A DNA stretch of 64,000 nt from a virus (IMGVR_UViG_3300020183_000020:46138-110137), one strand, 5' to 3'; numbered from the stretch's first letter, positions 9,945-59,798 are shown. Numbers and translations are program-made. Notes: generated from the letters alone by a model not told the origin.

Positions 9945-10337
9945 ATGATAAGAAGAACCGCTAGTGAAGTTTTAAGAAGCCTTGAGATGAGAGTCTCCCG
10001 CCTTGAGGGTAAGACAGCGACTCGCAGAACCGCTGCCAAGAAAATCCGTTTGGATAGAAATGTGGAGCAGAGGGTGATGAGAGAGATCGCTGATCGGTTT
10101 GACATAGAAATGGATGAAGACTCATATTATTGGCACAACCCTGTTTTTGAGGTTTTAGCTGAAGAAAAGGGTAGCCGCAATGTGTCCGAAGGTTCAATAT
10201 TTCAGCTTCTAAAGCTAGCGAATGACGACTACTATGTGGTGCTACAGGTCATCCCTTTCGCAAATGACTCGGACATCATAGGTGTTTACGACAGCATCTC
10301 TGATGCCCTGCGTGATTTCAAGCTAGCCAACCGCTAA
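9945..10337 (+). CDS. RRTASE-leader family protein 1 (putative packaged internal protein)
   Basis: N-terminus MIRRTASEVLRSLEMRVSRLEGKTATRRTAA is shared with the genes at 56330, 59279 and 59798. Confidence 0.75.
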   Translation: MIRRTASEVLRSLEMRVSRLEGKTATRRTAAKKIRLDRNVEQRVMREIADRFDIEMDEDSYYWHNPVFEVLAEEKGSRNVSEGSIFQLLKLANDDYYVVLQVIPFANDSDIIGVYDSISDALRDFKLANR

Positions 10338-10386
10338 TAAGCCTTCTATTATCTAATGTAGCTCCATACCGACAATGGAGCTACAT
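10338..10386 (+). promoter_or_regulatory. Late promoter motif plus 12-bp RBS-occluding hairpin
   Basis: TAAGCCTTCTAT (10338-10349), then ATGTAGCTCCAT/ATGGAGCTACAT containing GGAG. Confidence 0.65.
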
Positions 10387-10388
10387 AG

Positions 10389-10760
10389 ATGAAGTACCTG
10401 TATCACTACGAAGCTGAGGTTTTATCCGTATATGACGGAGATACCTGCACTCTTCAAATAGCCTGTGGGTTTGATATGTTCACGCGGGTGACATTTAGGC
10501 TGACGGGGATAGACACGCCTGAGATGAAGTCCAAAGACGCGACCAAGAAAGAGGCGGCAGTATCTGCGAGAGACCACTTAAGAAGTCGTATCATGGGGAA
10601 GAAAGTAATAGTGAACACGAAGGAGAGAGAGAAGTACGGAAGGTGGCTCGGTTATTTGTGGGTGGATGAAAATGGGGATGAACTTGGGGAGTCTCTTAAT
10701 GAGGAGATGATCCGTCTAGGTCACGCTTCTCCCTATGATGGTGGAAAGAAGACCCTATGA
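10389..10760 (+). CDS. Thermonuclease (SNase-family) nuclease
   Basis: 'VYDGDT', 'RLTGIDTPE', 'EKYGRWLG', 'LNEEMIRLGHA..YDGG'. Confidence 0.92.
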   Translation: MKYLYHYEAEVLSVYDGDTCTLQIACGFDMFTRVTFRLTGIDTPEMKSKDATKKEAAVSARDHLRSRIMGKKVIVNTKEREKYGRWLGYLWVDENGDELGESLNEEMIRLGHASPYDGGKKTL

Positions 10761-10777
10761 TGGGGGAAAGAAGAGCG

Positions 10778-11158
10778 TTATTCCTTTTCAGGTGCGGTTT
10801 GGATAACCAAACCATCTAAGTCCATGAGGTCAACAGGTTCATCAAAAGACGGCTCATCGGGTACCTCAGGGATAAAGTCGAAAAGCCCCTGAGTTTCGTT
10901 CATCCAATCCTCGTACTTCTCTGCCTTGTCGGACTCGTGCCAAGAGTCGGACAACCCATCAAAGTAGTCTTGCTGTGCGTCTACCACATCTTGGATGGCG
11001 TTGATGAGGTCGTCACTCTTGGACGAGACCTGCAAGAGAAGGTTCTCCAACTTGTCCCGAGCCTCAGCGAGGGCTGTGTTGTATGCCTCGATAGAGGCGT
11101 TGAGGTCAGCGAATCCATTTTGGATATCCTTTTGCTGTGCCATATTGAACTTGATCAT
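10778..11158 (-). CDS. Acidic coiled-coil hypothetical protein
   Basis: 126 aa, GGGGAG RBS, GC3-rich, behind a GTATCCCA motif. Confidence 0.75.
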   Translation of the reverse strand: MIKFNMAQQKDIQNGFADLNASIEAYNTALAEARDKLENLLLQVSSKSDDLINAIQDVVDAQQDYFDGLSDSWHESDKAEKYEDWMNETQGLFDFIPEVPDEPSFDEPVDLMDLDGLVIQTAPEKE

Positions 11159-11197
11159 GCTGATCTCCCCGTTTGGTTGGGTGGTGGTTGCCCCTCT

Positions 11198-11226
11198 CTA
11201 ATGCACCACTAGAGGGTTTGGGATAC
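11198..11226 (-). promoter_or_regulatory. Putative early/middle promoter GTATCCCA-N15-CATTAG
   Basis: Same spacing as the other copies. Confidence 0.6.
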
Positions 11227-11254
11227 AAAATTTGTAGTCTTTAATTAGGAAGAG

Positions 11255-12139
11255 CTAGTTCTTTACTATAAGGATTTCGTGAGAAGCCTTCGGCGTATTT
11301 CCTATTTCCTGCTTATTTTTGCCGACGCGGGTTTCACCTTGTCCATATGAATATGCCCATTCAGGAAAGTAAAACTCGAACCCCTCATAGTAATTACGGA
11401 TTTCTTCGCAGTCGTTGTATGAGAGAACGAACCGACCTTTATGGGAGTGGAGCAAGTCTCTCAGCTTCTCATGGTCGAAGGAGTTATGGTGAACCGCGAA
11501 GTTTCCATTGGGGTATAGCCCCTTGAACATCTTGTTGTCCTCAGACTCCTCTAAGAAATAAGGAGGGTCTAGGTAGAGGACATCATTTGGGTGAGCCTCG
11601 ATGACTTTCTCGAAGCTGCTTTCTTCTACTATGAGGGAAGGGTTGCGGTAGTTTCTGAGCTTATAACACATATCCTCCCATTTCTTGGGGGTATATATCG
11701 AGGAGAGCCAACCGAGATATTGAGGTCCGTAGGACAGGTTATGGTTGAAGAAATAATAGGCTGCTCCGATGATAGGGTCGAGTTCGATAGGGTTTCGAGC
11801 ATAGTGGTTGGTATGCCAACCCACGAAGAGAGCTTGGCTTTTGTTCCAAGAGAGGAGCTGTTCTTTGATGGTGTCGTAGTCTGACAGGCTGAGTTTAGAG
11901 GCTTCCTCGTAGAGTTTCTGAGGTTCTGTGAGAAGAACTCGCCAAAAGTTTACGAGGATTGAGAATATGTCGAAGCCTAAAACTTGAACCATTTTCTCAC
12001 TTGCCCACCGAGACTCAAGGCTCCCTCCACCGAGAAAGGGAGAAACGATAGTTTTGGGATAGCTCTTGGAGAATAAGTGTGGGGTGATTAGCTCATACGC
12101 TTTTGACTTACCACCAGGGTATCTTAAGGGAGTCTTCAC
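11255..12139 (-). CDS. Dam-like (D12 class) N6-adenine DNA methyltransferase
   Basis: 'KTPLRYPGGKS', 'PFLGGGS', 'YLDPPY', 'FVLSYND'. Confidence 0.92.
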   Translation of the reverse strand: MKTPLRYPGGKSKAYELITPHLFSKSYPKTIVSPFLGGGSLESRWASEKMVQVLGFDIFSILVNFWRVLLTEPQKLYEEASKLSLSDYDTIKEQLLSWNKSQALFVGWHTNHYARNPIELDPIIGAAYYFFNHNLSYGPQYLGWLSSIYTPKKWEDMCYKLRNYRNPSLIVEESSFEKVIEAHPNDVLYLDPPYFLEESEDNKMFKGLYPNGNFAVHHNSFDHEKLRDLLHSHKGRFVLSYNDCEEIRNYYEGFEFYFPEWAYSYGQGETRVGKNKQEIGNTPKASHEILIVKN

Positions 12140-12232
12140 GGAGGTTCCTTAACGCTTTAGACTTTTTATAGTGGTTTATACCACACCCATCCATTAGGGG
12201 TATGTCCCTAGTCCATCAGTTCTGAGTGTTTT

Positions 12233-12886
12233 TCAGAAGACTATCCGATACGGATAAATGGATTGGATAGTTAGGGGCTGAAGTTTATCTATTGCGATAA
12301 ATGCGGATTTTCCTTTGTCCCTTGCCGCGTGAGCTCGGACAAACTCACGCCTAAAGTTGTTGGGGTCTGTTAAGTCGTTTGGGCTAGAGAGACCTGCTAT
12401 GTAGAACATCTCCCGATCATTAGAGGTTTCCCTGAAGACAATCACCTCAGGTGAAGAGCCTTGTCGGTTGGGGTACATTATGGGATAGTTCCCCCAGCAG
12501 ACGCTCTTTACTCCGACCGCATATCCCGCTTGGCTAAGATCGGAAGAGAATTCTTGCGAGCACCTAACGGATAAGTCCAACACTTCGGTGAAGTCCAAAC
12601 CCAAGAACTTGCAGACCGCAGCTTCGCCGTACAGCCCCGTCCTCCATCTTTTTTCTTCCTCGTTGGGGTCTTTCTGATGGTCTGCTTCGGTCTTCTTCTT
12701 TTTTATGATTTTAAAAATACGCTCATCGAGGTAGTCCACCTCCCCTTTATCCAATTCGACTTTTGGATATGTGTTCTTGAGTGGTGCGACACAGATTTGA
12801 AAGTGCTGTTCGGCATCACCCCACTTCACAAGTTTTTCGGGTGTAACTGCGACATCTGCATCGTCAAAGTCTTTTATCCAATTCAT
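12233..12886 (-). CDS. Hypothetical protein, possible PD-(D/E)XK endonuclease
   Basis: 'GLYGEAAVCKFL...SDL...VGVKS' resembles the E-helix/D/xVK core; lies directly upstream of the MTase. Confidence 0.4.
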   Translation of the reverse strand: MNWIKDFDDADVAVTPEKLVKWGDAEQHFQICVAPLKNTYPKVELDKGEVDYLDERIFKIIKKKKTEADHQKDPNEEEKRWRTGLYGEAAVCKFLGLDFTEVLDLSVRCSQEFSSDLSQAGYAVGVKSVCWGNYPIMYPNRQGSSPEVIVFRETSNDREMFYIAGLSSPNDLTDPNNFRREFVRAHAARDKGKSAFIAIDKLQPLTIQSIYPYRIVF

Positions 12887-12965
12887 GTTATTCCTCCGTT
12901 GTGTGTTCTCTTACATATAGGAATTGTAATGGTTCTATGAATCCTAAAAGGTATCTCGATATTAG

Positions 12966-14891
12966 GTGAGAAATATGAAATACGCATACAGAACACCCAA
13001 GTTATTTAGCCTACAGCCTCTTCTTAGGCTGTTTAGATCGAAAGGTATTGGATACTCCGTCGACAGGTTCAAGGGTGAAAGGGAAGACCGTTTCTTTTCG
13101 GTTATTTCAGTTGCCTTAAACGCTGAGGATTGGATAGTTCGCCCGCAGGCTATAGGATTAAAGAGCGAAGAAGGCTTAGAGTTTATGGATATTAGATTTA
13201 CTAAGGTGAACTACAAGAAGTTCCACGAGTACATGATGGAGACCAAGGCTGAGTTAGCTCTCCCCCGTTTGGAAGATAGCTACATGGAACAGCGAGTAGA
13301 ACTATCCAAAGAAGTCTTGATTGTTGTAGTGCGTGAGGACAGATCAGGATATAGGGGTATTTCAAATCTAATGGAGGATTGGGGCATCCGCACGGATCGA
13401 CTTCTAAAAACCAAAGCTCTTTTACTTAAAAAGGCTGAGGGTGAGTCTATTGAACAAGACTTAAGGGGAGTACCTGCCACGGATATTTCGGGTAATACTT
13501 CAGCTAAGGAAGATAAAGCCATCGACCAAAGGTTCATTCAACCGATGCTTGAAAAGCATCGGCTCTCTGCTGAGATAATGGAAAAGAAGGCAGGTATTTT
13601 CAAAACGCACAAATCGAGTTTTGGTCGTCGGATTATTGCCGCCACCCACTCTTATTCCAAAACAACGGGGCGACCCCTGTATGTAGAGTTGGACAACATA
13701 CTTGGAGATACCTCCATAAACTACGCGGGCTCTTTACTAGAGAGATATGCCTGTCAGCACCTATCGGAAACTACGCTGCCCGATTTCCTTTTAAAGGCAG
13801 AGCTAGAACTGAAAGACGCTATCTATTTACCATCAGGGCGGAAAAGAAATGAGAGTGTCTATGACGAGATGGCTAAGAAGATAAAGAAAGATACCGAGGA
13901 AAGTCTAAAGGCTTGGCTCGATCTCAATGGTGTACAACTTGGTCTCTCAATGGATACTTTTATCGACAGGGGCTTCCGTTCAACTGCAACGGAATATCTC
14001 TCAAGATTGAGAGATAAGATATCCGTAGCAATCAAGCCCAAAAGGAAACTCGTAGATGGCATCCCTGATATGTACGAAACTAAGACTAAATCTGAGTACA
14101 TATCAGGACTAATGGAGCTAAATGGATTACTTGGTGGACACACAGACATAGAAACAGAAATAGCAAGGGCGGAGGGACACCCACATTTAGTTTACGCCAG
14201 CCATGTACCCAAATCCATATTGGAACTGAACAAGACGGAAATGGTTAAGAGACAGGAAAAAGATGAAACCATACTTCTCGACACACTTACTTCCCTTACA
14301 CCTCAAACAATAGCCCCTCAAACAATAACAAGGGATGGACATAACCTTATCGTGTGTTCGGAGTATCCGGGTTTTGGAGTTATTTATGATGAGTTAGGTG
14401 TTACGCCTGAGAAGGTTCATTTGGAGGGGATTTTTTATGCTCTGAAAATCATGAGCCACTATACGGATAAAAGGGTGATACAGCTCAAATATGAGAAGGG
14501 AGTTAGGGCAAACTATCTTGTGGCGGGATTGGGGGGGTTAGGTAGAATTGAAATGGATAGAAAAGATGACCTAAGAGTTGCTATCCATGAGGCGATGCAC
14601 GCACTTGAATGGCACTCTCCGTCTATATGTTCCCTTGTGACAGCGTTTTGTGCTAGTCGCTTCAATCCTTTCGAGGAAAAGAACATAGGGAGAGGCGAAA
14701 AAGCCTTCTCAGGTCTTTGGGATATTTACGCAGGTAAAATGTATGATGGCGATACAATGAGTGAGTTTATTACAATGGGGGTTCAGGAGTTCAGAAGTGC
14801 AAAAACAATCGTAGGACTCGCTAAGAAAGACTACCCACACTTCCTCTTTACCCACGCTCTAGTCACAGGGAAGCTGAAGGAATATCTATGA
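12966..14891 (+). CDS. Large late protein with C-terminal zincin-like metallopeptidase domain
   Basis: 'AIHEAMHALE' HExxH followed by 'YAGKMY...SEFITMG'; TAATGGTTCTAT motif at 12927-12938. Confidence 0.6.
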   Translation: MRNMKYAYRTPKLFSLQPLLRLFRSKGIGYSVDRFKGEREDRFFSVISVALNAEDWIVRPQAIGLKSEEGLEFMDIRFTKVNYKKFHEYMMETKAELALPRLEDSYMEQRVELSKEVLIVVVREDRSGYRGISNLMEDWGIRTDRLLKTKALLLKKAEGESIEQDLRGVPATDISGNTSAKEDKAIDQRFIQPMLEKHRLSAEIMEKKAGIFKTHKSSFGRRIIAATHSYSKTTGRPLYVELDNILGDTSINYAGSLLERYACQHLSETTLPDFLLKAELELKDAIYLPSGRKRNESVYDEMAKKIKKDTEESLKAWLDLNGVQLGLSMDTFIDRGFRSTATEYLSRLRDKISVAIKPKRKLVDGIPDMYETKTKSEYISGLMELNGLLGGHTDIETEIARAEGHPHLVYASHVPKSILELNKTEMVKRQEKDETILLDTLTSLTPQTIAPQTITRDGHNLIVCSEYPGFGVIYDELGVTPEKVHLEGIFYALKIMSHYTDKRVIQLKYEKGVRANYLVAGLGGLGRIEMDRKDDLRVAIHEAMHALEWHSPSICSLVTAFCASRFNPFEEKNIGRGEKAFSGLWDIYAGKMYDGDTMSEFITMGVQEFRSAKTIVGLAKKDYPHFLFTHALVTGKLKEYL

Positions 14892-15196
14892 CCACCACCA
14901 CTATCCATTTTCGGTACGGAAGTGTGAAAGCCCAAGTCTTAATCTTTTACAGCGATCCGTTTATGATTGAGGGTTATGAGTTCTCAGGGGATGGGACAAT
15001 CATAAACATCTACAAAAGCAAACTAGGGGGAGAACCTTCAGGTTACTTCATCGGTTCTGCCTCTGTAGATAACATAGAATACTTCATCAATGCGGCATAT
15101 GATGCCAAAAGAGATTTCGAGCGGCTAGAGTATGCCATAGTCAACCCTCCCAACCTTAGCAGGAACAACTCAGACAACCCTGATGCCGTCTACTAA
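14888..15196 (+). CDS. Small hypothetical protein translationally coupled to the metallopeptidase (possible inhibitor/immunity)
   Basis: ATGA overlap; AAGGA RBS. Confidence 0.6.
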   Translation: MTTTTIHFRYGSVKAQVLIFYSDPFMIEGYEFSGDGTIINIYKSKLGGEPSGYFIGSASVDNIEYFINAAYDAKRDFERLEYAIVNPPNLSRNNSDNPDAVY

Positions 15197-15275
15197 GGAT
15201 AGCTGATTAATAGTTTGTTTATGGGGGTACTCAAACGGATACTAACCCTCCCGACCCTTTTGAGGTACACAGAGT

Positions 15276-15662
15276 ATGCCCCTAGTTCATCAGCACATTG
15301 TGATTCGTTCCCATGTCATGAAGCCTCCCATGAGCGAGGAACAGACGAAGAATTGGCTCAAAGAGCTTATTTCCAAGATTGACATGAAGATTCTTAATGG
15401 ACCTCATGCGACATATTTGGATAAAGAGGGAAATAGGGGCGTAACAGGGGTCTGCATTATTGAGACTTCTCATATCGCCATCCATGTGTGGGACGAGGAG
15501 TCACCGGGGCTGATTCAGCTTGATGTGTACTCATGTAAGGACTTCGATAAGGAAGTGGTATTTGACCACTTCAAGTGTTTCGAGCCTGTGTCCACCGAGT
15601 GGTTCATGCTCGACCGCACGGACAAGCTGTCCATCACGGATGATATTCAGGCAAAGAAATAA
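15276..15662 (+). CDS. speD: S-adenosylmethionine decarboxylase proenzyme
   Basis: 'GVTGVCIIETSHIAIHVWDE', 'QLDVYSCKDF'; TAGTTTGTTTAT motif at 15211-15222. Confidence 0.85.
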   Translation: MPLVHQHIVIRSHVMKPPMSEEQTKNWLKELISKIDMKILNGPHATYLDKEGNRGVTGVCIIETSHIAIHVWDEESPGLIQLDVYSCKDFDKEVVFDHFKCFEPVSTEWFMLDRTDKLSITDDIQAKK

Positions 15663-15665
15663 GAA

Positions 15666-16265
15666 ATGGCAGACGGAGAGTGCATAATAGGGGGTGATGT
15701 ATCTCTCGTCTTTTGGAAAGATGGCGGATGGTATGCTGATGGGGAGTATCTAACGGACGATATAGGGAAGTGCAAAATCCTCCCATCGAGTGAAGACAGG
15801 AAGATTGTCTTATCGGTGGGAGAACCTCCCCGCATATTTGTCCCCAAGAAGTTACCTGAGCCTGAGCCTGTGAGGGCAATTGAGAAATCGTCCGTTCAAG
15901 AGGTTCAGCCCATAGCGGAAGTACTTCAGGTGGTAGAGGACACTATTTTAGAGAAAGTTTTGGATAAACTAGGCGACAATCCATTAGCTGTTGTTGTCGC
16001 GATTGGATTTGTGGTCTTTAAGAAGATGATCGAGGGTAAACAGACCAAATCTGAAAGTGAAATGGATAAAAGGTGTAGCGGTCGTCATCAGGGTTCAGAT
16101 GTTCAGACCAAAGAGCTAGAGAAGCAGGTTGAAGATTTGAAACAGAGATTGGAAGAAGTGAGTTCTAACTACGAGCTAAGTAAATCTAGCTCTGTGTCCC
16201 GCAGGGATTACAACAAGCTACTTGATCGGATGGAAGCACTTGAAAATTTATTGGATAATAAATAG
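15666..16265 (+). CDS. Hypothetical membrane-anchored coiled-coil protein
   Basis: Hydrophobic 'PLAVVVAIGFVVF' followed by KK and a C-terminal coiled coil. Confidence 0.65.
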   Translation: MADGECIIGGDVSLVFWKDGGWYADGEYLTDDIGKCKILPSSEDRKIVLSVGEPPRIFVPKKLPEPEPVRAIEKSSVQEVQPIAEVLQVVEDTILEKVLDKLGDNPLAVVVAIGFVVFKKMIEGKQTKSESEMDKRCSGRHQGSDVQTKELEKQVEDLKQRLEEVSSNYELSKSSSVSRRDYNKLLDRMEALENLLDNK

Positions 16266-16270
16266 TCAGC

Positions 16271-17050
16271 TTATAGCGTATCTGTACTAAGGCTTAGGAC
16301 TACAAAATCTTCGCTTTTGACCCCTATTTGACACTCGATGAGCCAATCAATAAACATCTTTCCATCAACTAGGGCGATGGGTTTATTATCTTTACGGCTG
16401 GCTTCTTCAATTGCCTCTTTGGTGAAGCCCGAGGTGCAGATGATCATCCCGCTTTCATGCTTGAGGCTTCCTCTTAGCTCCCTAACTTCCTTTGATCCGA
16501 CTTTGTTTTTCCCTGCGTATCTCTTAACCTGTATAGCAACCTCAGTATTGATTAAGCCTATATAAATGGCTCTTATGTCTATACCCTTATCTTTAGTGGG
16601 TGGTGTGACTCGAACATCACGACAGCCCTTTCGAGACAAGACACCTGCCACAAAATGTTCAAACTGAGTCCCATTATACTTACCCAATACATTATCCAAA
16701 AGTTGCTTTCTTACCTTGTCGTTGTGGGCTTTGATCTCAGATAAGAAGTTGTCTTGGTGAGGGTGAGCGGGGGACGGCTTTGGATTGGTCTTGGGAGTCT
16801 TGGTGGTGGGGGGGTGGGTAGCCTGAGCGGTTTTTATCCAATAAAGACCTGCCTTATCTAAGGTGAAGTCGCCATGCCTCTTCATGTGCTTATACAAAGC
16901 GGCTTGGATTGTAGCTTTGGGTCTCTTTCCGCCCAAGGGGGGAGACCCCTTCTTTTCTAGAATCTTATCCGTGAGGTCATCGAGAGTCAGACCTTGAGAT
17001 TGTTCTTGGAGAACCTTGATGGCGAGGGAAACATAGGAGTCTTGTTGCAT
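16271..17050 (-). CDS. Mrr-family restriction endonuclease with N-terminal winged-HTH (HARE-like)
   Basis: 'QFEHFVAGVL...G','TKDKGIDI','IQVKRY','VGSKEVREL.G','ICTSGFT.EA...A','IALVDG' = Mrr_cat. Confidence 0.9.
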   Translation of the reverse strand: MQQDSYVSLAIKVLQEQSQGLTLDDLTDKILEKKGSPPLGGKRPKATIQAALYKHMKRHGDFTLDKAGLYWIKTAQATHPPTTKTPKTNPKPSPAHPHQDNFLSEIKAHNDKVRKQLLDNVLGKYNGTQFEHFVAGVLSRKGCRDVRVTPPTKDKGIDIRAIYIGLINTEVAIQVKRYAGKNKVGSKEVRELRGSLKHESGMIICTSGFTKEAIEEASRKDNKPIALVDGKMFIDWLIECQIGVKSEDFVVLSLSTDTL

Positions 17051-17101
17051 AATGGAGGTAACTTCTCTTTTGGATTTTGGGTTCTATCTCTCACTCGCCA
17101 T

Positions 17102-17130
17102 ACAATAATTGTATAACCCGAATGGGATAC
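17102..17130 (-). promoter_or_regulatory. Putative early/middle promoter GTATCCCA-N15-TATTGT
   Basis: Upstream of the Mrr gene; followed by GTGAGAGATA as in the 56757 and 57925 copies. Confidence 0.6.
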
Positions 17131-17181
17131 TAAATATAAGTGTTTTACTAGGGAAGTGTTCCCCCGTTGGGGATCGCTCTT

Positions 17182-18048
17182 TCAGTATCCGAAATCGGTG
17201 GGGTTTTGGGCGATGACCTTTTCGATCACTTCGATGTGTTTCTTTAGGTGTATGGTGGTGATGCCTTTAGCCTCAGCCCACTCTTGGTGGGTTTGATAGG
17301 TGCCTTCGACCTTATCACGATATATTCCATATCGGATAAGACCTGTCTCCTGACCGAACTTGGAGGTGAGGAGGTGTTTGACATGATTTGAGATGGAATC
17401 AGCTTCAGCTAGCTTTTCAGCTTCGGAGGTGTAGTCGTAAAAGTAGTCTACTTCGGTGTTTTCGGGGTTATCCTCGTCCACCTTTGTCACCACTTTAGCG
17501 GAGTCTTCGGACTGATAGTGATACCGAGAACCACGCTTACACTCTTGTTGAGTCTTACGCCCGCGTTGGCGTTGCAGGGCATCTTGTCCCTCGACCATAC
17601 TTGCCCGCCACACGAACTGCTTAAAATGGTAGAAGATTGAGTTTTGTGTGGGTTCTTTGCCTTTATCCACCATAGCGGAAAGATTGTTCTTGTCGCAGAT
17701 GAAGACGATAAAATCTTGAAAATAATCTTCCAAGTCGCCTAGAGCAAAGTTTATAGCTGTGTCCCTGCCCCCATGACGGAGGCAAAACTCTCTCAGCTTT
17801 TCGTAGTTGGCGGACTTTCCGTCATACAGCCACTTCTCTGTGGAGTTGTAAGTCCTCCTTGAGGGGCGGTTTTTAGGCGGTTGGATCGTGACAACCTGAT
17901 ACGACTCAATCTCGTTGAACATGGTGTCGAAAATCGAGTCTTTATTTTCAAGGGCTTTGATCTGAGCCTCTAGAGCTTTGATCTGAGCCTCCACCTTCGC
18001 CGCTTCCTCCCGCTTCCCAAAAAGGTCTTGCCGCAGTTTCTCTAACAC
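17182..18048 (-). CDS. Divergent sigma-factor-like transcription regulator
   Basis: Region-2-like 'DLEDYFQDFIVFI', C-terminal HTH-like 'THQEWAEAKGITTIHLKKHIEVIEKVI'; N-terminal 7-aa tandem repeat EAQIKAL. Confidence 0.4.
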   Translation of the reverse strand: MLEKLRQDLFGKREEAAKVEAQIKALEAQIKALENKDSIFDTMFNEIESYQVVTIQPPKNRPSRRTYNSTEKWLYDGKSANYEKLREFCLRHGGRDTAINFALGDLEDYFQDFIVFICDKNNLSAMVDKGKEPTQNSIFYHFKQFVWRASMVEGQDALQRQRGRKTQQECKRGSRYHYQSEDSAKVVTKVDEDNPENTEVDYFYDYTSEAEKLAEADSISNHVKHLLTSKFGQETGLIRYGIYRDKVEGTYQTHQEWAEAKGITTIHLKKHIEVIEKVIAQNPTDFGY

Positions 18049-18119
18049 GATGGTCTCCTCATAGAGAGGGTTAGTTGTGCCTCATATGGTTGGTCACCGA
18101 GACACGGGGGGTAGCACCT

Positions 18120-51808: not shown

Positions 51809-51835
51809 AGTATCTCCTATAGGGTCACACCACAT

Positions 51836-51904
51836 CTAATAAGACAGAATGGGGGTTGGGACACAGAAAAGGATAGTATCCCAACCCGAGCTATCTATTA
51901 TTAA
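51836..51904. promoter_or_regulatory. Back-to-back divergent pair of GT(A/G)TCCCA-N15-TATTAR promoters
   Basis: Minus strand 51836-51864 GTGTCCCA-N15-TATTAG; plus strand 51876-51904 GTATCCCA-N15-TATTAA. Confidence 0.65.
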
Positions 51905-51938
51905 TGGGGTGTACCCCCTCTACGAAGAGAGAAGCATA

Positions 51939-52514: not shown

Positions 52515-52559
52515 TATAATGCCTCGGGGTCGAAGGTGAAAGCTCTAAACAAAGGATAG

Positions 52560-53168
52560 GTGATGCTAAGTTTTTTGTACTCTACAGTAAACGCGGGAAA
52601 GACAGCTCATTTGATAATGAGAGCACACTCTTGTTCCGAAGCTGGCATTAACCACGAGGTTCTTGTCCCTGAAATAGCATCTAAGAGAGATGGCATATCT
52701 CGTGTTTCCTCTAGGATAGGGATACAGAGAGGAGCATCGTCTCTTAAAGGCGACACTTGTCCTTATGAGTATATTATCTCTTGTAACGAAAGAGCCTTGA
52801 GGGTTTGGGGCAAGCCTAATCCGATTAAGATAGTTTTTGTGGATGAGGCTCAATTCTTAACAAAGGCTCAGGTGGTGGGGCTAACGCGGATAGTGGATGA
52901 GCTAGCTGTTCCTGTTTTCGCCTATGGCTTAAGAACGGACTTCAAGGGAGAGTTATTTGAGGGCAGTTCTTATTTACTTGGTTGGGCGGATAAGGTGGAG
53001 GAGATATCCATATTTGGTAAGTCAGAATATGGGGGATTGGTGGAGCGAGCGACTTTCAACATGAAAGTCGATTTAGAGGGTAAGCAGGTAGTCAAGGGAG
53101 ACTCGATTGATCCAGGGTTTGGATACCTTCCTGTATCCCGCAAGAGGTTTGGTTTAACGAAGTTTTAA
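52560..53168 (+). CDS. tdk: Thymidine kinase
   Basis: 'YSTVNAGKTAHL','SSRIG','FVDEAQFL','YGLRTDFKGELFEGS'. Confidence 0.92.
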   Translation: MMLSFLYSTVNAGKTAHLIMRAHSCSEAGINHEVLVPEIASKRDGISRVSSRIGIQRGASSLKGDTCPYEYIISCNERALRVWGKPNPIKIVFVDEAQFLTKAQVVGLTRIVDELAVPVFAYGLRTDFKGELFEGSSYLLGWADKVEEISIFGKSEYGGLVERATFNMKVDLEGKQVVKGDSIDPGFGYLPVSRKRFGLTKF

Positions 53169-53803
53169 GCGTCTCTACGCTGTAAAAGAGAAGCGACCTG
53201 AGACCTTATCTCTTTGACGCAAAGATTGACCCTCTTCATTTCCCAGCCTAGTTCTTGGGCGATGTGTGCGTGTTTGGTGCCTTCCATCATGGCATCGAAC
53301 ACTTTGAGTAAGTCTCCTTGAAAAGATGACCTTACTTGTTCGATTAAGAAGTCATCTTCTTCGGTGGAGTAATGAGATGCGAGATTTGATGTAGCGGCAT
53401 CATCTTCAGAACCAACACATTCGCGGTCATTGTGTAGTTTCCGCTTCTTGACAATGTTCATGACAACGCAGTTCATGACCATGACGACATAGGTAGAGAA
53501 GGCAGACTTCTTTGGGTCATAGGGACAAGTGCCTTCGTTACGGATAATCAGTCCTTTATAAACCTCTTGGAGGACATCTTCGGGGTCTAATCCGAGACGA
53601 GCGACTTGTTTTGCTTGGCGTTTGTAGAACAAGAGTCGGATGTCGGACGACTTTTTATTGATGTCGATTCCGTGGGGTTTCTTTTTGATTGGGTTGAACT
53701 TCTTTTTGAAGTCAAAGCTGAGTATCGCATAGACCCCCTGATGCCATTTTTTGTTTGGCTGCACTTGGGTATAGTCAACAAGGCACTCCATATAACTCTC
53801 CAT
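53165..53803 (-). CDS. Sigma70/ECF-like RNA polymerase sigma factor
   Basis: 'DPEDVLQEVY','YDPKKSAFSTYV...N' (region 2); 'EGTKHAHIAQELG...V...IR' (region 4 HTH). Confidence 0.8.
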   Translation of the reverse strand: MESYMECLVDYTQVQPNKKWHQGVYAILSFDFKKKFNPIKKKPHGIDINKKSSDIRLLFYKRQAKQVARLGLDPEDVLQEVYKGLIIRNEGTCPYDPKKSAFSTYVVMVMNCVVMNIVKKRKLHNDRECVGSEDDAATSNLASHYSTEEDDFLIEQVRSSFQGDLLKVFDAMMEGTKHAHIAQELGWEMKRVNLCVKEIRSQVASLLQRRDA

Positions 53804-53856
53804 AAAGGTGGGTTCAAAGGAGTACCCGTTATTGCCTAATTAACCTAGGGTGTCAA

Positions 53857-54867
53857 ATGAAACTTGCAAAGCAAATACTACTGCTGGCGTGGGTCAAAGA
53901 GAAGACACAGATCAACCCTAAACGCCTATCGGATAACCTGACAAGAGATCAGCTTTCCGAGTTGTTGGGGTTATTGGATAAGCTAAAGAGCTTAGGGGGA
54001 GTGTTCACGCCGCAGGAAGTGATAGAGGAGTATCTCGAAGATAATGGTGTGGATTTATCAGCCCCGAAAAAGTGTTCATCAGGGCAAAAGATAGATATGG
54101 TTCTTTTAACTGCAACACATCCAAAATTGGATAATGGGTGTGTGAGCGTTTTTTTAAGCCATTTATTATTGGCACACGGCTTCAAGAACACCCGTTCAAA
54201 CAGGAGACTTCTGACTAAACACTTTAAGGAGTTGGGTTATCAGCTATCCAAAAAGGAGCTGATAACTAGTCCACATAGAGAGTTATCAGAGGTAGTGCAA
54301 CTAAAGGAGGCATATGAACCGAAGTTCCCCTCAGGTCTAGATGTGAGTGAAGCGGAGCCGAAGAAGCGTAATGCTCACATAGTGGATTGGCTTTATGAAG
54401 GTCATGAAGTGCAGGTAGGGGGAGAAGCATACACAAGAAAAAATGTGAACGCTCGTTGGGAAGCCTTTATGGTGAGACGGATGCACGAGTTGTATGAGTC
54501 AAGCGAGCTACCTTATCTATATAAGCACCGAGTACAACGCGGGGTCTTTGATGATGTCGCTGAAGTACGCATGATCTTCCAACTAGCTATCCGAGATGTG
54601 TTTAAGCCGATGAACATAATAGATTGGGTCACTCTCTCAGTCGGGTATGAACTGCCTTTGTTTGATTCGGCGGATAGCCAACATAAAGAAGTCTTGGTGT
54701 CCACCTGTACCGACAGCGTATTGGGGATTTTGAACAAGACACTTGTAGACGGAAAACCGCTAGCTATTGACCCCAAAATGGTAAGTGGTTGGTTAAGTCT
54801 GTTGGTTATTTCGTATGTCGAGGATGCTCTAAGCCAATTCAAAGGAATGAGATGTCATACCTCCTGA
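53857..54867 (+). CDS. Hypothetical protein
   Basis: 336-aa ORF. Confidence 0.7.
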   Translation: MKLAKQILLLAWVKEKTQINPKRLSDNLTRDQLSELLGLLDKLKSLGGVFTPQEVIEEYLEDNGVDLSAPKKCSSGQKIDMVLLTATHPKLDNGCVSVFLSHLLLAHGFKNTRSNRRLLTKHFKELGYQLSKKELITSPHRELSEVVQLKEAYEPKFPSGLDVSEAEPKKRNAHIVDWLYEGHEVQVGGEAYTRKNVNARWEAFMVRRMHELYESSELPYLYKHRVQRGVFDDVAEVRMIFQLAIRDVFKPMNIIDWVTLSVGYELPLFDSADSQHKEVLVSTCTDSVLGILNKTLVDGKPLAIDPKMVSGWLSLLVISYVEDALSQFKGMRCHTS

Positions 54868-55598
54868 TTTTAAGTCTTTCTTTCCAATGTTTATTGGACG
54901 GACTGCAACAAGCCTCCCGAGTTAATATCCTGCCGAAGTGGAAGTTTGTTTATTCTCGCCCCGCCGAGTATGGAGACCAACTCAGATTTCTTCAACACGC
55001 TTGGGAGGATGCAGAAACCGATCCAAGAATACTAGCACTCGCTTGGATGGAAAGTCGGATAAGACCAACTATCCATAAAGGAGATAATGGTAAAGCCTGT
55101 GGGGTGTTTCAAATTCATGCTAGGTATTCGTATCCCGCTTTCACAAGGGGACATTGGAATAATTGGAACCCTGAGGAACACAAAGAAGCTATCCAAAAAG
55201 AGTGCGTCAAACTAAAACACCCTAAATACGCAGTCCAAGTCATGAGGAAGTTCCTCCACCTTTTTGACGAAGAAGATTTACACTCCTGCCACCACCAAAG
55301 CGGTATCCGTGGCTCTTGTAATGATTGGTATAAACAACGCCTTGATTATTGGATAACATTTTTCCAATATAAACTCGTAACCTGTTCTAATGGAGATATG
55401 TCGATGGCTATGATGCGTACAGGAACCCCTACTTCCGCTACACCTATTGAGATGGTTCAGGGATATCTTGATGGGATGCAGGGCAAGTCACCTTCTTCTC
55501 AGTCCGATGTCTATAAGACAGGATACGAACTCGCCCTTAAAGTTAAACGCGGGGAAACCGAAGCTCCAGCTTGGGCTATCACCCACCAAAATGGATAA
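54852..55598 (+). CDS. SLT-like lytic transglycosylase with signal-like N-terminus
   Basis: 'ILALAWMESRI','GDNGKACGVFQI'; start MSYLLILS at 54852 with AAGGA RBS. Confidence 0.6.
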   Translation: MSYLLILSLSFQCLLDGLQQASRVNILPKWKFVYSRPAEYGDQLRFLQHAWEDAETDPRILALAWMESRIRPTIHKGDNGKACGVFQIHARYSYPAFTRGHWNNWNPEEHKEAIQKECVKLKHPKYAVQVMRKFLHLFDEEDLHSCHHQSGIRGSCNDWYKQRLDYWITFFQYKLVTCSNGDMSMAMMRTGTPTSATPIEMVQGYLDGMQGKSPSSQSDVYKTGYELALKVKRGETEAPAWAITHQNG

Positions 55599-55604
55599 CG
55601 CTAC

Positions 55605-56276
55605 ATGGACGATGGATGGCTTAAACAAGGTTTTGCAAGCCCCCTAGAGACATATCGACCATACCTCCTCTCTAGAGGTGTCAATAGCCAATCCACTATC
55701 CATTTCCACTCTTGGAACCCCCATTCAAATGTCCAAGACCCCCGTTTTAAATCTATGTTTGGACAACAAGGGGAACGCATAAAAGAACACCTGATTATTC
55801 CGATCTCCTCCCCTAGAGGTCAAATCATCGGACTTGAAGCCCGCTCTCTTTCTGAAGATGGACAAAAGAAAGTCCTTCAGTATCGTACACCACACTCTCA
55901 ATGGAACCCTTACCTACTCGGCTCTCAAAATGCTTTTAAAGCCCTTTGGGAAGGACACGACCTTTGGATAGTCGAAGGTGTGTTTGATCTGATCGCAGTT
56001 GAAAAATGCCTCTCTAATGGAGATGCCGTTTGTTCAACCCTCCGTGCAGGTATGGACGCAAATACTCTCGCATCCATCTCTCAGTTTTATACTCCCATGT
56101 CCACCATCTATATCTGTTACGACAATGACGAAACAGGAAGAAAGAAATCTCTTTGGCTTCATAAGGAGATGTCCCGCCTCGGAATCCGTTGTGTAGAATG
56201 GAAGTACAGAGGAAAAGACCCCGGAGAAGTTTGGAAAGCTGGCGGTCTTCAGGGTCTAAAGAAAATGTTTTATTAA
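55605..56276 (+). CDS. DnaG-type primase catalytic (TOPRIM) core lacking the Zn-binding domain
   Basis: 'YLLSRG','LIIPI....GQIIG..AR','IVEGVFD','ICYDNDETG','KDPGE'. Confidence 0.85.
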   Translation: MDDGWLKQGFASPLETYRPYLLSRGVNSQSTIHFHSWNPHSNVQDPRFKSMFGQQGERIKEHLIIPISSPRGQIIGLEARSLSEDGQKKVLQYRTPHSQWNPYLLGSQNAFKALWEGHDLWIVEGVFDLIAVEKCLSNGDAVCSTLRAGMDANTLASISQFYTPMSTIYICYDNDETGRKKSLWLHKEMSRLGIRCVEWKYRGKDPGEVWKAGGLQGLKKMFY

Positions 56277-56325
56277 TAGATCATCTATCATATGCACCTA
56301 ATCAAGACACCTAACTAGGAGCATA
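56277..56325 (+). promoter_or_regulatory. Late promoter motif plus RBS-occluding stem
   Basis: TAGATCATCTAT (56277-56288); TATGC-A-CCTA / TAGG-A-GCATA. Confidence 0.55.
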
Positions 56326-56329
56326 AACC

Positions 56330-56755
56330 ATGAGAAGAACCGCTAGTGAAATCTTAAGTGACCTTGAAACCCGCATCGCACGCTTAGAGCGTCACGCTTC
56401 CAAGTCCCGTTTCGCTGACGATATGTGGGCGGATGACCTTGAGGCGGATGATATGTTCGCTGATGAGATGTTCGCAGGGCGTACTTGGGACGGCAAGGGG
56501 AATCAGAAAGACTACAACAACCCACCCGCCCCAAAAAATCAAGCAGATTGTTACTCCGCAGACAATTGGGAAGGACTCGGTAAGCCCGGTCAGGGCGAAA
56601 CCTGTTATCGTCTCCACAACAACTACGGCGAAGCCAACTCAGGTAAGCCGGGTTCAGCCGCTAGAAAAGAGTACAACAGGAGATACCGTGAGGAGTGGAT
56701 GGACTCTGCCTCCATCAAGAGACCTGAGGGTAAGAGACCAGGCGGTCGTAGATAG
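56330..56755 (+). CDS. RRTASE-leader family protein 2 with acidic pentapeptide repeats
   Basis: MRRTASEILSDLETRIARLERHAS; DDMWA-DDLEA-DDMFA-DEMFA. Confidence 0.75.
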   Translation: MRRTASEILSDLETRIARLERHASKSRFADDMWADDLEADDMFADEMFAGRTWDGKGNQKDYNNPPAPKNQADCYSADNWEGLGKPGQGETCYRLHNNYGEANSGKPGSAARKEYNRRYREEWMDSASIKRPEGKRPGGRR

Positions 56756-56756
56756 A

Positions 56757-56785
56757 GTATCCCAAGGGGGTTTCTCCGTTATTAG
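56757..56785 (+). promoter_or_regulatory. Putative early/middle promoter GTATCCCA-N15-TATTAG
   Basis: Near-identical to 2800-2828, including spacer and downstream TTAGG. Confidence 0.65.
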
Positions 56786-56827
56786 TTAGGTGTGAGAGAT
56801 ACACACCAACCCCCTCAGGAGATGATC

Positions 56828-57055
56828 ATGCCCAAGCTCTTCATGACCCGCCACAAGCTCCACGGCACCCTCGACCTCACCGTCCACACCGCTCACCACA
56901 TCAAGCTCCTCAGCATCCTCCCCCACGCCAAAGTCCTCGTCAAGACCCCGACCACCACGATGCTTACCTTGAAGTACGACTCCTTCAAGGGGAAGGATGG
57001 GTCGGAGGAGGTGGTGGGGGTGTTGCGTGGATACTACGAGATTGTGGAGGGGTGA
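56828..57055 (+). CDS. Small hypothetical (putative early) protein, extremely GC3-rich
   Basis: AGGAG RBS; nearly all codons end in C or G. Confidence 0.7.
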   Translation: MPKLFMTRHKLHGTLDLTVHTAHHIKLLSILPHAKVLVKTPTTTMLTLKYDSFKGKDGSEEVVGVLRGYYEIVEG

Positions 57056-57075
57056 CCCCCCCTTGGGGATGTTGA

Positions 57076-57441
57076 GTGATAAGGCTCGGTGACTACATCC
57101 TTTATGGGAAACACTTAAAGCTACGCCAAGTCTTGTCTCTGAACACCTTACATGGATATGGGGTGAGTAATGGCGTATGTGTTCCCCTTAAAGATATCTA
57201 CGCAGTAGTCCCAACCCTTTATCAGCCACAGACCTTGACTAATGTCAACATACTCGTAAACGGATACCTTCCAATATATCGGCATATATTATTGTGCCTA
57301 CCACCCTCTACAACGGGTGACCTAGTAAAGGTTTATATACCCCATGCAGGGGTATTAGAGGGTGTTGTTTCCCATTGGGAGGGAAGCTCAGTTTTTATAT
57401 TTGAGCTAGTGTCACACGCCAAAATAGTTCTCGTAGCGTGA
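57076..57441 (+). CDS. Hypothetical protein
   Basis: 121 aa; N-terminus weakly resembles 57472 ('lGDy/f...G..L'). Confidence 0.5.
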   Translation: MIRLGDYILYGKHLKLRQVLSLNTLHGYGVSNGVCVPLKDIYAVVPTLYQPQTLTNVNILVNGYLPIYRHILLCLPPSTTGDLVKVYIPHAGVLEGVVSHWEGSSVFIFELVSHAKIVLVA

Positions 57442-57471
57442 ATCTAGTGCAGCACAGAAAGGATAAAAGAG

Positions 57472-57888
57472 ATGGGTAATATTGGAGACTTTATGGTTTG
57501 GGGGGGAAATCAACTGAGGTTTGCCCGCATCCTCGAAAAACACTCACAGGGCTTGTTTTACGGATACTTGAGTGATAATGGCAAAATAAAGTATATAGCC
57601 GATCCTTTCGCTATCCTTCCCACGCACTATGCGGAAATATCCCCAACATCTTCGGATCGTATCATCGTTTGTGGGGATAAAAGTTTCATATACTTGAATT
57701 GGGAAGAAGCGAGTGTGAGTTTTTTCGGTAGCGGGGTATTCGAGATTTACTTTGAGGGCAAATTATATTTGGGGGTTGGCACAGCTTGCCCTCATGCCTT
57801 TCGAGGCGTAGAGGGGAGGAGGAGTTACTTCTTCTTTACTGAGATCAAAACTAATACTCTTTACGCTTTGCCCTCAAGCAAGACCTGA
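57472..57888 (+). CDS. Hypothetical protein
   Basis: 138 aa, AAGGA RBS. Confidence 0.6.
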   Translation: MGNIGDFMVWGGNQLRFARILEKHSQGLFYGYLSDNGKIKYIADPFAILPTHYAEISPTSSDRIIVCGDKSFIYLNWEEASVSFFGSGVFEIYFEGKLYLGVGTACPHAFRGVEGRRSYFFFTEIKTNTLYALPSSKT

Positions 57889-57924
57889 TAATCCGTAAAT
57901 GATCCTCGCTTAGGTCTTATAAGG

Positions 57925-57953
57925 GTATCCCAACCCGAACTATCCTATATTAG
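57925..57953 (+). promoter_or_regulatory. Putative early/middle promoter GTATCCCA-N15-TATTAG
   Basis: Upstream of the ligase. Confidence 0.65.
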
Positions 57954-57994
57954 TGGGGTGTGAGAGATAGACCCCCTTAACTAAGGAAATTGAG

Positions 57995-58894
57995 ATGAAG
58001 TATCACAAGCCTCAGCTTGCCAAGACTGCTGACGAGAAGTTCTTATCCGCCTGTAAGGGTAGCCACCTTGTGGTGGCAGAGATGAAACTCGATGGACATC
58101 GCATCATGATTGCCCATGATCAGGCATGGTCTCGTATAGGTAAGGAGATCAAGTCGGTGGGGCATATTCAAGCTCACTTGCCCGCTGGCTTAATGCTTGA
58201 CGGGGAGTTGATCCCTCGGGCAGGGGTGGAGGGTTCCGATGTCGTTTCTCATCTCAGAGCGAATGACCCTGAGGCACTTGAGTTTGTTATCTTTGATGTC
58301 CTCTATGTAGAGGGACAAAGCGTGATGAACCTGCCTTGGTTGGAGAGGCGTAAGATCATTGAGAACCTACCCTCTTTCACCAACACTCGACTTTCTGTTT
58401 TGTATCCTCTGTCTCAGTACACGATTGAGGATTTGATGGCGTTAGCGGCAGATCGAGGGCATGAGGGCATCATGCTCAAAAAGGTTACGGAACCCTACAA
58501 GGAGAATAGCCGCTCGGCTTGGGTGAAGCACAAGTTTACGGATACTCATGATGTGGTCATTGTGGACGCTAATGCCAAGCCCTCAGAATGGCGTGTCCGT
58601 CCAGGAGAGATGGGTACAGATGGTATCTTGTACCCTCAAGGTCGTCACTCAGACCCTTGGCTTGCAGGTCATGTCGGACTGAGTTATGGATATTATGACC
58701 AACAGGGGGTTCTTCGTGTGGTTGGTTCCCTTGGGGAAACGGGAACGCCTGAAGATATGTCCGCCCATGTTGGAAAAGTTGCAGAGGTTAAGGGTTATGG
58801 ATTGTATCCCACAGGGGCTATTCGACACCCTGTGTTCCTCCGCTGGCGTGACGACAAGCTACCTACCGATTGTGTGTTTAACTTCGCCAACTAA
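57995..58894 (+). CDS. ATP-dependent DNA ligase (minimal)
   Basis: Motif I 'EMKLDGHR', III 'LDGEL', IIIa 'FDVL', IV 'EGIMLK', V 'WVKHK', VI 'RHPVFLRWRDDK'. Confidence 0.93.
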   Translation: MKYHKPQLAKTADEKFLSACKGSHLVVAEMKLDGHRIMIAHDQAWSRIGKEIKSVGHIQAHLPAGLMLDGELIPRAGVEGSDVVSHLRANDPEALEFVIFDVLYVEGQSVMNLPWLERRKIIENLPSFTNTRLSVLYPLSQYTIEDLMALAADRGHEGIMLKKVTEPYKENSRSAWVKHKFTDTHDVVIVDANAKPSEWRVRPGEMGTDGILYPQGRHSDPWLAGHVGLSYGYYDQQGVLRVVGSLGETGTPEDMSAHVGKVAEVKGYGLYPTGAIRHPVFLRWRDDKLPTDCVFNFAN

Positions 58895-58897
58895 CTC

Positions 58898-59279
58898 TTA
58901 GTCGCCGTAAACATCCAACTCACTTAAATTGCCCATGCGAGGTCTGCCCATATAGTTAGGGTTCGCATAATGTAAGGGGTCTCCTGTAATATCCTGAACC
59001 ACCGCAGTCATCTCCTCCGCTGTCCTAGCCCTTGTATTAAAGGCTTCTTGGAAATTAGCAATGAATTCCTTCTCAGAACAGCGGAATACCATATCTCCGT
59101 CTCTGTCGAAGTCGTACTGCAAGAAGGTGGCACCATCGAAGTAGTCGTGATATAATCCTACTATATCACCGTAGTACTTACCCGCCGCTGTCCTCGAAGT
59201 GGAACCCGCACGCCTTTCAAGGCGTGCGGGTTCTCATCTCAAGGCTTCTTAAAACTTCACTAGCGGTTCTTCTTATCAT
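58898..59279 (-). pseudogene. RRTASE-leader family protein 3, +1 frameshift at a perfect inverted repeat
   Basis: The ATG at 59279 gives MIRRTASEVLRSLEMRTRTP*. Removing 1 nt gives ...MRxARLERRAGSTSRTAAGKYY..., continuous with the 58898..59122 ORF (382 nt = 3n+1). Confidence 0.75.
59202..59233. repeat. Perfect 15-bp inverted repeat GAACCCGCACGCCTT-TC-AAGGCGTGCGGGTTC
   Basis: Read directly. Confidence 0.92.
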
Positions 59280-59351
59280 TATCAAATCTCCAAGGGGGTA
59301 ATGGATAGGGGTTAATAGATAACTTGTAGGGGTCTCTAGATGACGGATATG

Positions 59352-59798
59352 TTAATCCACTCTGCGACCTTTGATGTCTTTCACAGCAGAGGCAATACCG
59401 ATAGAAACTTCTGTTCTGAAATCAGTAGGCACCCCGCCCGATGGGGTGATAACGCAGTCAATCTCTAGCTTCAAGAGACCACCTGAACGAAATTCACCAC
59501 TTCCCGAAAACGAATTCCAAGTACCCACCTGAATACTCTTGAACTCAATATCCGCATCGTGATCAAGGTCTACTCTACTCTCCTTCTCAAACTGAGATTG
59601 AACTGCCCGCACTACTGCATTATTTACCCCATCCCCAAAGAATTTAAAAGCGTCGAATTTCATTAGGGATTTCTGTACGACAGGTTCTATACCCTCACCC
59701 ATCTGAACATAGAACATACCATTACTTGCGGTACGACCTTCGAGGCGAGCAACGCGAGCCTGTAGATGACGGATAACATCAGCAGCACTTCTTCTCAT
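59352..59798 (-). CDS. RRTASE-leader family protein 4
   Basis: MRRSAADVIRHLQARVARLEGRTAS. Confidence 0.75.
   Translation of the reverse strand: MRRSAADVIRHLQARVARLEGRTASNGMFYVQMGEGIEPVVQKSLMKFDAFKFFGDGVNNAVVRAVQSQFEKESRVDLDHDADIEFKSIQVGTWNSFSGSGEFRSGGLLKLEIDCVITPSGGVPTDFRTEVSIGIASAVKDIKGRRVD

Follow-up and report, generated by a model that had tools for sequence, protein, structure and literature searches.

A portable leucine-zipper-like tag at the N-terminus of diverse small proteins of uncultured jumbo phages, a candidate prohead-targeting propeptide

The window analyzed here, a stretch of 64,000 nucleotides from an uncultured jumbo phage from a lake (bases 46138-110137 of the 110,137-bp viral contig IMGVR_UViG_3300020183_000020, CheckV completeness 35%), encodes small proteins that begin with the same 24-residue tag and are otherwise unrelated. 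On the basis of comparative sequence analysis we consider it reasonably probable that this tag is a portable prohead-targeting propeptide, which would be removed between the Ala and the Ser of the motif [KR]-x-A-S. This proposal draws on the strict N-terminal position of the tag on diverse cargo, on the presence of tagged genes inside the head module of related phages, and on the concentration of the motif in the scaffold, a putative core protein and the prohead protease of those relatives. The close relatives are likewise uncultured; the three complete genomes compared in detail (G001, G002 and G003) have 152 shared genes defined among them.

The tag and its cargo

The initial annotation, drawn from the nucleotide sequence of the window, had proposed a modular leader joined to unrelated cargo and had expected that a hidden Markov model (HMM) of this leader would recover many further cargoes. 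Both expectations are borne out. At a cut-off of E<=1e-3, 934 protein clusters with the tag were recovered when 1.84 billion cluster representatives were searched by profile, and in 147 of the best 149 of these 934 profile-matching proteins, on which the positional and length statistics are based, it begins at residue 1 (median protein length 134 amino acids). The 110-kb contig itself carries at least 12 copies, as detected with the leader profile both inside and outside the window, and complete or near-complete relatives (275-376 kb) carry 12, 17, 22 and 31. A scan of IMG/VR yielded 154 relatives, from whose loci 79 distinct tagged open reading frames (ORFs) were extracted, and a word-based homologue search with the tag retrieved only 3 proteins, which is a limitation of that method. 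No GenBank phage was matched by the tag in megablast or tblastn searches; phage G, Tunturi_5 and LR745208, the last being the closest GenBank record, lack it, and literature searches returned no description of the 24-residue tag.

The cargo proteins are small and diverse. Clustering by BLASTP placed 87 cargos in 72 clusters and 142 representatives in 118, and an all-against-all BLASTP comparison of 12 tagged proteins of the contig aligned the tag and a few further residues only, in agreement with the original observation that similarity ceases after the leader. The possibility that the tagged proteins constitute one paralogous family was likewise rejected, given that BLASTP similarity ends after the tag. 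Almost none of the cargos belongs to a Pfam or PHROG family: the Pfam matches are singletons (pentapeptide repeats, HAD+C39, WGR, KOW and HTH), and a PHROGs search of the cargos returned nothing informative.

The logo of the tag reads M-R-R-[ST]-A-S-E-[VI]-[IL]-R-x-L-E-x-R-[IV]-A-R-L-E-x-[KRQ]-[AST]-[ASG], and its boundary is sharp, with an information content of more than 3 bits that falls to less than 0.6 past residue 24. Leu12, Arg15, Leu19 and Glu20 are invariant in 78 tag sequences. The arrangement is that of a leucine zipper, with Ile/Leu9, Leu12, Ile/Val16 and Leu19 in the a/d positions of the heptads and Glu13, Arg15 and Glu20 in the e/g positions; the closest sequence matches in the PDB are GCN4 zipper peptides, and the core string R-I-A-R-L-E occurs in papers on the Jun/AP-1 leucine zipper. 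In the AlphaFold2 (AF2) model of the tagged protein encoded at 56330, residues 5-31 form a helix, whose predicted local distance difference test score (pLDDT) is 77-81 over approximately the first 20 residues; the tag helix is the sole confident part of this model, which has a mean pLDDT of 49. Within the tag, residue 14 (f position) and, in part, residue 11 (c position) are the only variable ones, which suggests that a docking partner would wrap most of the helix. The logo contains no hydrophobic h-region or membrane-type face, the consensus having five Arg and four Glu, and no Gly-Gly, Gly-Ala or Gly-Ser is found at the boundary, where positions 21-24 read [KRGN][QKR][AST][ASG]. A Sec/Tat signal peptide was also considered and discarded, as the basic n-region is followed by no hydrophobic h-region and the helix is charged throughout.

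Outside the window the contig carries five N-terminal copies and weaker variants, one of them on a pentapeptide-repeat protein. Copies away from the N-terminus comprise a C-terminal one on a zincin (genome 7118-8311), an internal one in a protein of about 400 amino acids (genome 11782-12978) and a truncated one between the HAD and C39 peptidase domains of a further protein (genome 8897-10051). In the copy at genome 8420-8746 ATA stands in place of the ATG start (the upstream sequence reads V-T-I-I-I-R-R), and this copy may start at a GTG four codons upstream or be silenced. Some proteins are double-tagged (P0017, P0005 and P0013), combining an N-terminal tag with a C-terminal or internal one, in one case in tandem.

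Selection acts on the tag at the level of the peptide, because synonymous positions vary at fixed residues and the tag is retained across genomes of 38-47% G+C. Third codon positions in the tag vary freely: Ser6 is encoded by TCA in 30 copies and by AGT in 30, and Arg15 by AGA, AGG, CGT or CGC; codons 2-3 read AGA-AGA with few exceptions. At the DNA level, one genome can contain identical copies, and upstream sequence is shared by members of a lineage; recombination between copies probably spreads the tag. Tag similarity in G001 is 0.66 within the genome versus 0.46-0.57 against distant genomes, and this resemblance fits either a shared partner or gene conversion. A self-contained tag that is DNA-identical between some copies would also allow new genes to be recruited by recombination.

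The head module of relatives and the distribution of [KR]-x-A-S

In G003 the head genes are arranged in the order of a protein of about 800 amino acids, TerL, portal (phrog_16240), two tagged genes, proteins of 206 and 1062 amino acids, the prohead protease (phrog_18299), a 517-residue acidic helical scaffold-like protein, a decoration-like protein, the major capsid protein (MCP) and again two tagged genes. G001 and G002 have the same gene order, with tagged genes 2-4 kb downstream of the MCP gene. The MCP of these relatives matches phrog_2522 and phage G gp27 (PDB 6WKK, E 1e-63); that of G003 (L088:18531-19409) has 292 residues, and the protein is 97% identical among G001-G003, versus 40-80% for other proteins shared by these genomes, whose G+C content ranges from 38 to 47%. 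Its homologues form about 2,091 clusters, with an identity of 89% or more throughout the best 120. That the MCP and the tag both hardly vary may be a consequence of having to fit dozens of partners.

The tag begins with R-[TS]-A-S and often ends with [KR]-[QT]-A-S. The initial annotation had noted K/R-x-A after the leader, a statement that holds and can be refined to [KR]-x-A-[S>T,A,G]. In the untagged proteins of the three complete genomes [KR]-x-A-S occurs 94, 107 and 110 times, versus 45.5, 53.5 and 54 expected from within-protein shuffles, and none of five control motifs of the same composition ([KR]-x-S-A, [KR]-x-A-T, [KR]-x-G-S, [DE]-x-A-S and the reversed motif) is enriched in the same genomes. 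This enrichment, about 2-fold proteome-wide, rises to 8-15-fold in the scaffold, the core protein and the prohead protease: in each of the three genomes the protein of about 800 residues has 9-10 sites versus 0.7 expected, the scaffold 4-7 versus 0.6 and the protease 3-5 versus 0.4, and there are none in the MCP, portal, TerL and decoration protein. Several sites occupy the same position in different scaffolds, among them those that immediately precede the conserved C-terminal tail of the protein. The protein of about 800 residues (L088:2108-4498, G003 142108-144498, and orthologues) is conserved upstream of TerL; judging from its sites it may be a core or ejection protein of the head, which would be cut into many pieces. 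At the tag itself, the motif is found within residues 18-34 in 42 of 147 proteins, versus 2 of 141 in a control stretch, and a looser form of it in 102 of 147, versus 13 of 141.

The specificity for [KR]-x-A-S appears to be older than the tag, because the tagless LR745208 shows the same enrichment (6 sites versus 0.66 expected in the scaffold and 3 versus 0.5 in the protease) and the tail of phage G gp19 has two such sites. By analogy with T4 and SPN3US, this distribution is, as a statistical pattern, the one that would be expected of a prohead protease site. Homologues of the protease are found in phage G (gp19 region), Tunturi_5 and LR745208. Searches of G000-G004 gave no match to PF05065 and none to PF03420 (Peptidase_S77), the control search for the latter likewise giving none. 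An AF2 model of the protease from a 46-sequence alignment has a mean pLDDT of 55.9 with a poor catalytic domain, and neither Foldseek at E<=0.001 nor phmmer found a match in the PDB.

The scaffold carries a tag-like helix, 'R-I-A..R-L-G-K-K-A-S', and a zipper of its own, L-K-A-A-N-A-R-L-A-R-K-V-R-K-L, with an Asn at an 'a' position. We found this zipper in every tag-bearing lineage that was read (roughly a dozen distinct scaffolds), and the scaffold of the tagless LR745208, a single negative genome, is without it. A strict regular expression had pointed to tag-bearing phages devoid of the scaffold zipper, a result that was set aside as reading the sequences revealed divergent zippers in all of them. 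It is conceivable, if rather doubtful, that the tag pairs with the conserved zipper of the scaffold as one half of a programmable zipper; given the one negative genome, the co-occurrence of the two is only a lead, and another lead to the docking partner is that the MCP and the tag are alike in being nearly invariant.

Tagged genes and their surroundings on the contig

The features of the window that bear on the tag are collected in Table 1. The initial annotation listed four leader genes; those at 9945, 56330 and 59798 are intact, and the one at 59279 is frameshifted as it stands in the window. A further 'MRRTSA' start, which it had placed at 61562, has no HMM match to the tag profile and drops out. 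A DNA pattern for the first six codons of the leader has 5 matches versus 0.43 expected, a number reached in 0 of 100 shuffles. The cargo of gene 1 has no significant match in Pfam or PHROGs. In gene 2 the tag is followed by an R-H-A-S site, an acidic stretch and a conserved basic, Cys-containing C-terminal domain; lake and marine relatives have this domain as well, preceded by linkers that differ greatly in length, and a 12-residue string of the acidic stretch, ADDMWADDLEAD, is common to the scaffold-like protein of G003.

Table 1. Tagged genes and associated sequence features, in coordinates of the window
Feature	Position	Strand	Description
Tagged gene 1	9945..10337	+	130 aa; tag = residues 1-24 (9945-10016); ORFan cargo
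Tagged gene 2	56330..56755	+	141 aa; tag 56330-56401
Tagged gene 3	59352..59798	-	148 aa; tag 59727-59798, ends G-R-T-A-S
Tagged gene 4	58898..59279	-	frameshifted in the window; intact 126-aa form in the population
Untagged gene	61553..61942	+	SWIM zinc-finger protein; 'MRRTSA' start coincidental
Late-promoter-like TA-N5-TTTAT	9885..9896	+	60 nt upstream of gene 1
Late-promoter-like TA-N5-TCTAT	56277..56288	+	53 nt upstream of gene 2
Two overlapping late-promoter-like motifs	59857..59879	-	70 and 81 nt upstream of gene 3
CA-N5-TCTAT variant	59315..59326	-	upstream of gene 4
C-run with extra base	59228..59230	-	CCC run; disrupts gene 4
Inverted repeat	about 59203-59230	-	perfect 10-bp arms, 6-nt loop; C-run in 5' arm

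In frame 0 the copy at 59279(-) has 20 codons followed by a stop, and the ARLE...RRA...RTA text of this gene sits in the +1 frame; its first 48 nt are identical to those of the copy at 9945. Deletion of one base of the C-run restores a tagged ORF of 126 amino acids. The phage is present in 20 sequencing runs, none of which is listed as an RNA run. Contigs from four lake-water runs (X1, X2, X13 and X18) were compared with the tag region: those of X2 and X18 are one letter shorter at the C-run, and those of X1 and X13 have the sequence of the window. The fourth tagged gene is thus real in the population, as two of the four lake assemblies carry the intact form, and is broken in the window sequence. 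Programmed +1 frameshifting was considered for this gene and dropped, as there is no slippery site and an intact allele exists. The inverted repeat around the C-run coincides with the codons for A-R-L-E-R-R-A of the tag, and the frame-0 stop codon lies inside its loop.

Two further features of the lake assemblies concern the same region. In three of the four runs, short contigs connect 59284 with 59807 through 4 other letters; this joint, whose sides are only 29-32 nt, omits the whole gene at 59798 between two tag-cassette starts and may represent either a genuine deletion variant or an artefact of the repeats. In all four runs contig depth is 5-10-fold higher precisely where the tag and the sequence upstream of it lie (59230-59297 and 59706-59841), which reflects many near-identical copies in the phage population.

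The association of the leader genes with a TA-N5-TYTAT motif, also contained in the initial annotation, is confirmed: the three intact genes have the motif at a distance of 53-81 nt upstream, and 59279 is preceded by a CA variant. Genome-wide there are 86 such sites versus 44 expected, and 29 of 120 ORFs have the motif 47-67 nt upstream, among them baseplate and tail genes, several zincins and tagged genes. This common promoter-like motif suggests that the tagged genes are co-regulated with the structural genes, presumably with late timing.

A survey of 30 large ORFs of the contig with Pfam and PHROGs detected no head genes, the matches being to baseplate/tail, methylase, actin-like and similar proteins only; ORFs of 463 and 692 amino acids were considered as candidates for the MCP or portal and are neither. 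The actin-fold protein (genome 5017-6015, outside the window) matches the Pfam family Volactin with E 4e-72 and is unusual for a phage. At the other end of the contig, positions 62325-64000 of the window are occupied by tandem paralogous ORFs of about 236-248 amino acids, which run up to the contig end and have no family match; the series is kept as four to five paralogues in G001-G003, and its products may be structural.

Proposed mechanism, alternatives and known systems

As a mechanism, we propose that the tagged genes would be transcribed late together with the structural genes, and that the tag would fold into a three-heptad leucine-zipper-type helix, which would dock the cargo onto a conserved component of the assembling procapsid. 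Candidates for this component are the conserved zipper of the scaffold and the nearly invariant MCP. The prohead protease, to which phage G gp19 is homologous, would subsequently cut the [KR]-x-A-S sites that flank the tag, along with those in the scaffold, in the core protein of about 800 residues and in its own tail. The tag and the fragments of the scaffold would then exit, and the small, fast-evolving cargo would remain in the head until it is ejected together with the DNA. Both capsid loading and cleavage of the tag are steps that we infer.

Several points weigh against this mechanism. Neither the scaffold nor the MCP, in which the initial annotation had thought a match to the leader possible, scores against the tag profile. 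The strict [KR]-x-A-S follows only about 29% of the tags, and the definition of the cleavage site is loose because many of them end in Q-S-A, K-S-S or similar. The few internal or C-terminal tags misfit a simple propeptide, and a role in the head would require them to be gene fusions or double tags. The gene neighborhood and the motif enrichment are circumstantial, and the evidence from context comes from relatives because the 35%-complete contig is without a head module. The catalytic fold of the candidate protease could not be confirmed from its low-confidence model, and the presence of tagged proteins in virions, their cleavage and their injection are inferred for these uncultured phages.

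The zipper character of the tag could alternatively mean that it is a general coiled-coil oligomerization or adaptor element, by which late proteins would pair mutually or with a cytoplasmic hub and would be neither loaded nor trimmed. Its GCN4/c-Jun-like heptads, with charges in the e and g positions (Glu13, Arg15, Glu20 and a basic residue 22) that suit parallel self-pairing, are in line with such a role, as are the double-tagged proteins and the conserved family of about 400 amino acids with an internal tag, which could be the hub. We nevertheless regard it as unlikely, as it leaves unexplained the strict position at residue 1 (147/149), the boundary motif of protease type common to the scaffold, core and protease, and the tagged genes inside the head module; moreover, the conservation of the b and c positions (Arg10, Ala17 and Arg18) suggests a more enclosing site than that of a plain dimer.

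Another possibility is that the destination of tagged proteins is not the head interior but a different late structure or location, for instance the tail or baseplate, the cell envelope or a compartment built by the phage. That the tag helix is devoid of a hydrophobic h-region and of a membrane-type face, that basic-x-Ala-Ser is concentrated in head-assembly proteins and not in the baseplate and tail proteins counted, and that the portal and MCP are neighbors conserved in all three complete genomes make this distinctly improbable, even though the promoter-like motif is common to tagged, tail and baseplate genes, many of the tagged genes are distant from the head module, and the Volactin-family actin-like protein of the contig renders some form of intracellular organization plausible.

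Bacteriocin leaders are short N-terminal helices, and the HAD-C39 fusion with its truncated tag between the domains, together with further papain-like peptidases on the contig, raises the question of whether the tag is a leader for phage C39-type (double-glycine) peptidases, as in bacteriocin export. Such a function is very improbable: the boundary offers no Gly-Gly, Gly-Ala or Gly-Ser, the C39 domain is not fused to an ABC exporter domain, and the boundary motif is instead common to the scaffold and the prohead protease. Finally, it is scarcely credible that the tag is a functionless peptide encoded by a DNA cassette of promoter, ribosome-binding site and first codons, which recombination would propagate or which would act as a translational leader, for although the 48 nt identical between the copies at 9945 and 59279, the almost constant AGA-AGA of codons 2-3, the upstream sequence conserved within lineages and the joint with sides of 29-32 nt that bypasses the 59798 gene between cassette starts in three runs could be so interpreted, the synonymous variation at fixed residues (including Ser as TCA or AGT) largely refutes it, and the tag is maintained in genomes that range from 38 to 47% G+C and has internal and C-terminal copies with no promoter in front.

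Giant phages have to select, from hundreds of proteins, those that enter the head and are injected along with the DNA, and to our knowledge no shared address sequence has been described outside T4. If the tag is indeed a prohead-targeting propeptide, metagenomes could be turned into catalogues of candidate injected effectors, for anti-defense or host takeover, in a widespread clade of lake and marine jumbo phages; a specificity would be predicted for a new branch of prohead proteases, to which that of the cultured phage G belongs; and the tag would provide a compact handle for packaging foreign proteins into capsids. Were the zipper pairing also true, one 24-residue sequence would define the injected-protein repertoire of a cosmopolitan clade, comprising more than 900 dark-matter effector families. 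The near-invariance of the tag and the capsid protein presents an evolutionary puzzle.

Among known sequence elements, the zippers of bZIP proteins (GCN4, c-Jun) match the core L-E-x-R-[IV]-A-R-L-E of the tag in their heptads almost letter for letter; the tag differs in being a convergent short coiled coil of three heptads in a phage context, with no basic DNA-binding region. The encapsulation peptides of bacterial microcompartments and the cargo-loading peptides of encapsulins are short, portable and usually terminal, with a variable linker. Like the tag, they serve diverse cargo and occur at the N-terminus, at the C-terminus or between domains, and the HK97 fold is common to encapsulin shells and the MCP; unlike what is proposed for the tag, they are not removed, and their sequences are unrelated to it and their shells are not virions. 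The maturation and release sites of herpesvirus assemblin are Ala-Ser bonds, and the candidate site described here similarly has Ala at P1 and Ser at P1' and occurs just upstream of the conserved C-terminal tail of the scaffold, like the M-site; the basic P3 is specific to this clade, and the model of the protease is of low confidence.

In phiKZ, 201phi2-1 and SPN3US the propeptides of head and ejection proteins are cut by gp175/gp245 after A-X-E (PMC10052503, PMC5694885). These are likewise giant phages with many head-internal proteins and N-terminal propeptides containing several protease motifs, and their scaffold or core proteins and the protease itself bear the same motif as the propeptides. 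Their propeptides, however, share the cleavage motif only and no common conserved tag; P1 is acidic there, whereas the boundary basic-x-Ala-Ser here, which is neither [SAG]-x-E nor A-X-E, would have Ala at P1 and Ser at P1', and the MCP here is phage G-like (6WKK) and has no such site.

The closest functional parallel is that of the capsid-targeting sequence (CTS) of T4, reportedly treated by Mullaney and Black in 1996. It is present on the internal proteins IPI-III and Alt and is removed by the prohead protease gp21 (PMC10052503). Like the tag, the CTS is a short N-terminal peptide on otherwise unrelated packaged proteins and is portable to other cargo, and its docking to the scaffold core and its removal at a protease consensus site are both proposed here for the tag. 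There is no sequence relation between them: the tag is a near-invariant zipper helix of 24 residues, versus about 10 in the CTS; its predicted site is [KR]-x-A-S, cut before the Ser, versus cleavage after [LI]-x-E in T4; the protease belongs to phrog_18299 (phage G gp19-like) and gave no Peptidase_S77 match in a search whose control was also empty; and the tag is found on 12-31 genes per genome and in more than 900 cargo clusters, versus a handful of proteins in T4. The tag would work like the T4 CTS, to which it has no homology; the two are set apart by their length and structure, the cleavage motif, the family of the protease and the scale of use.

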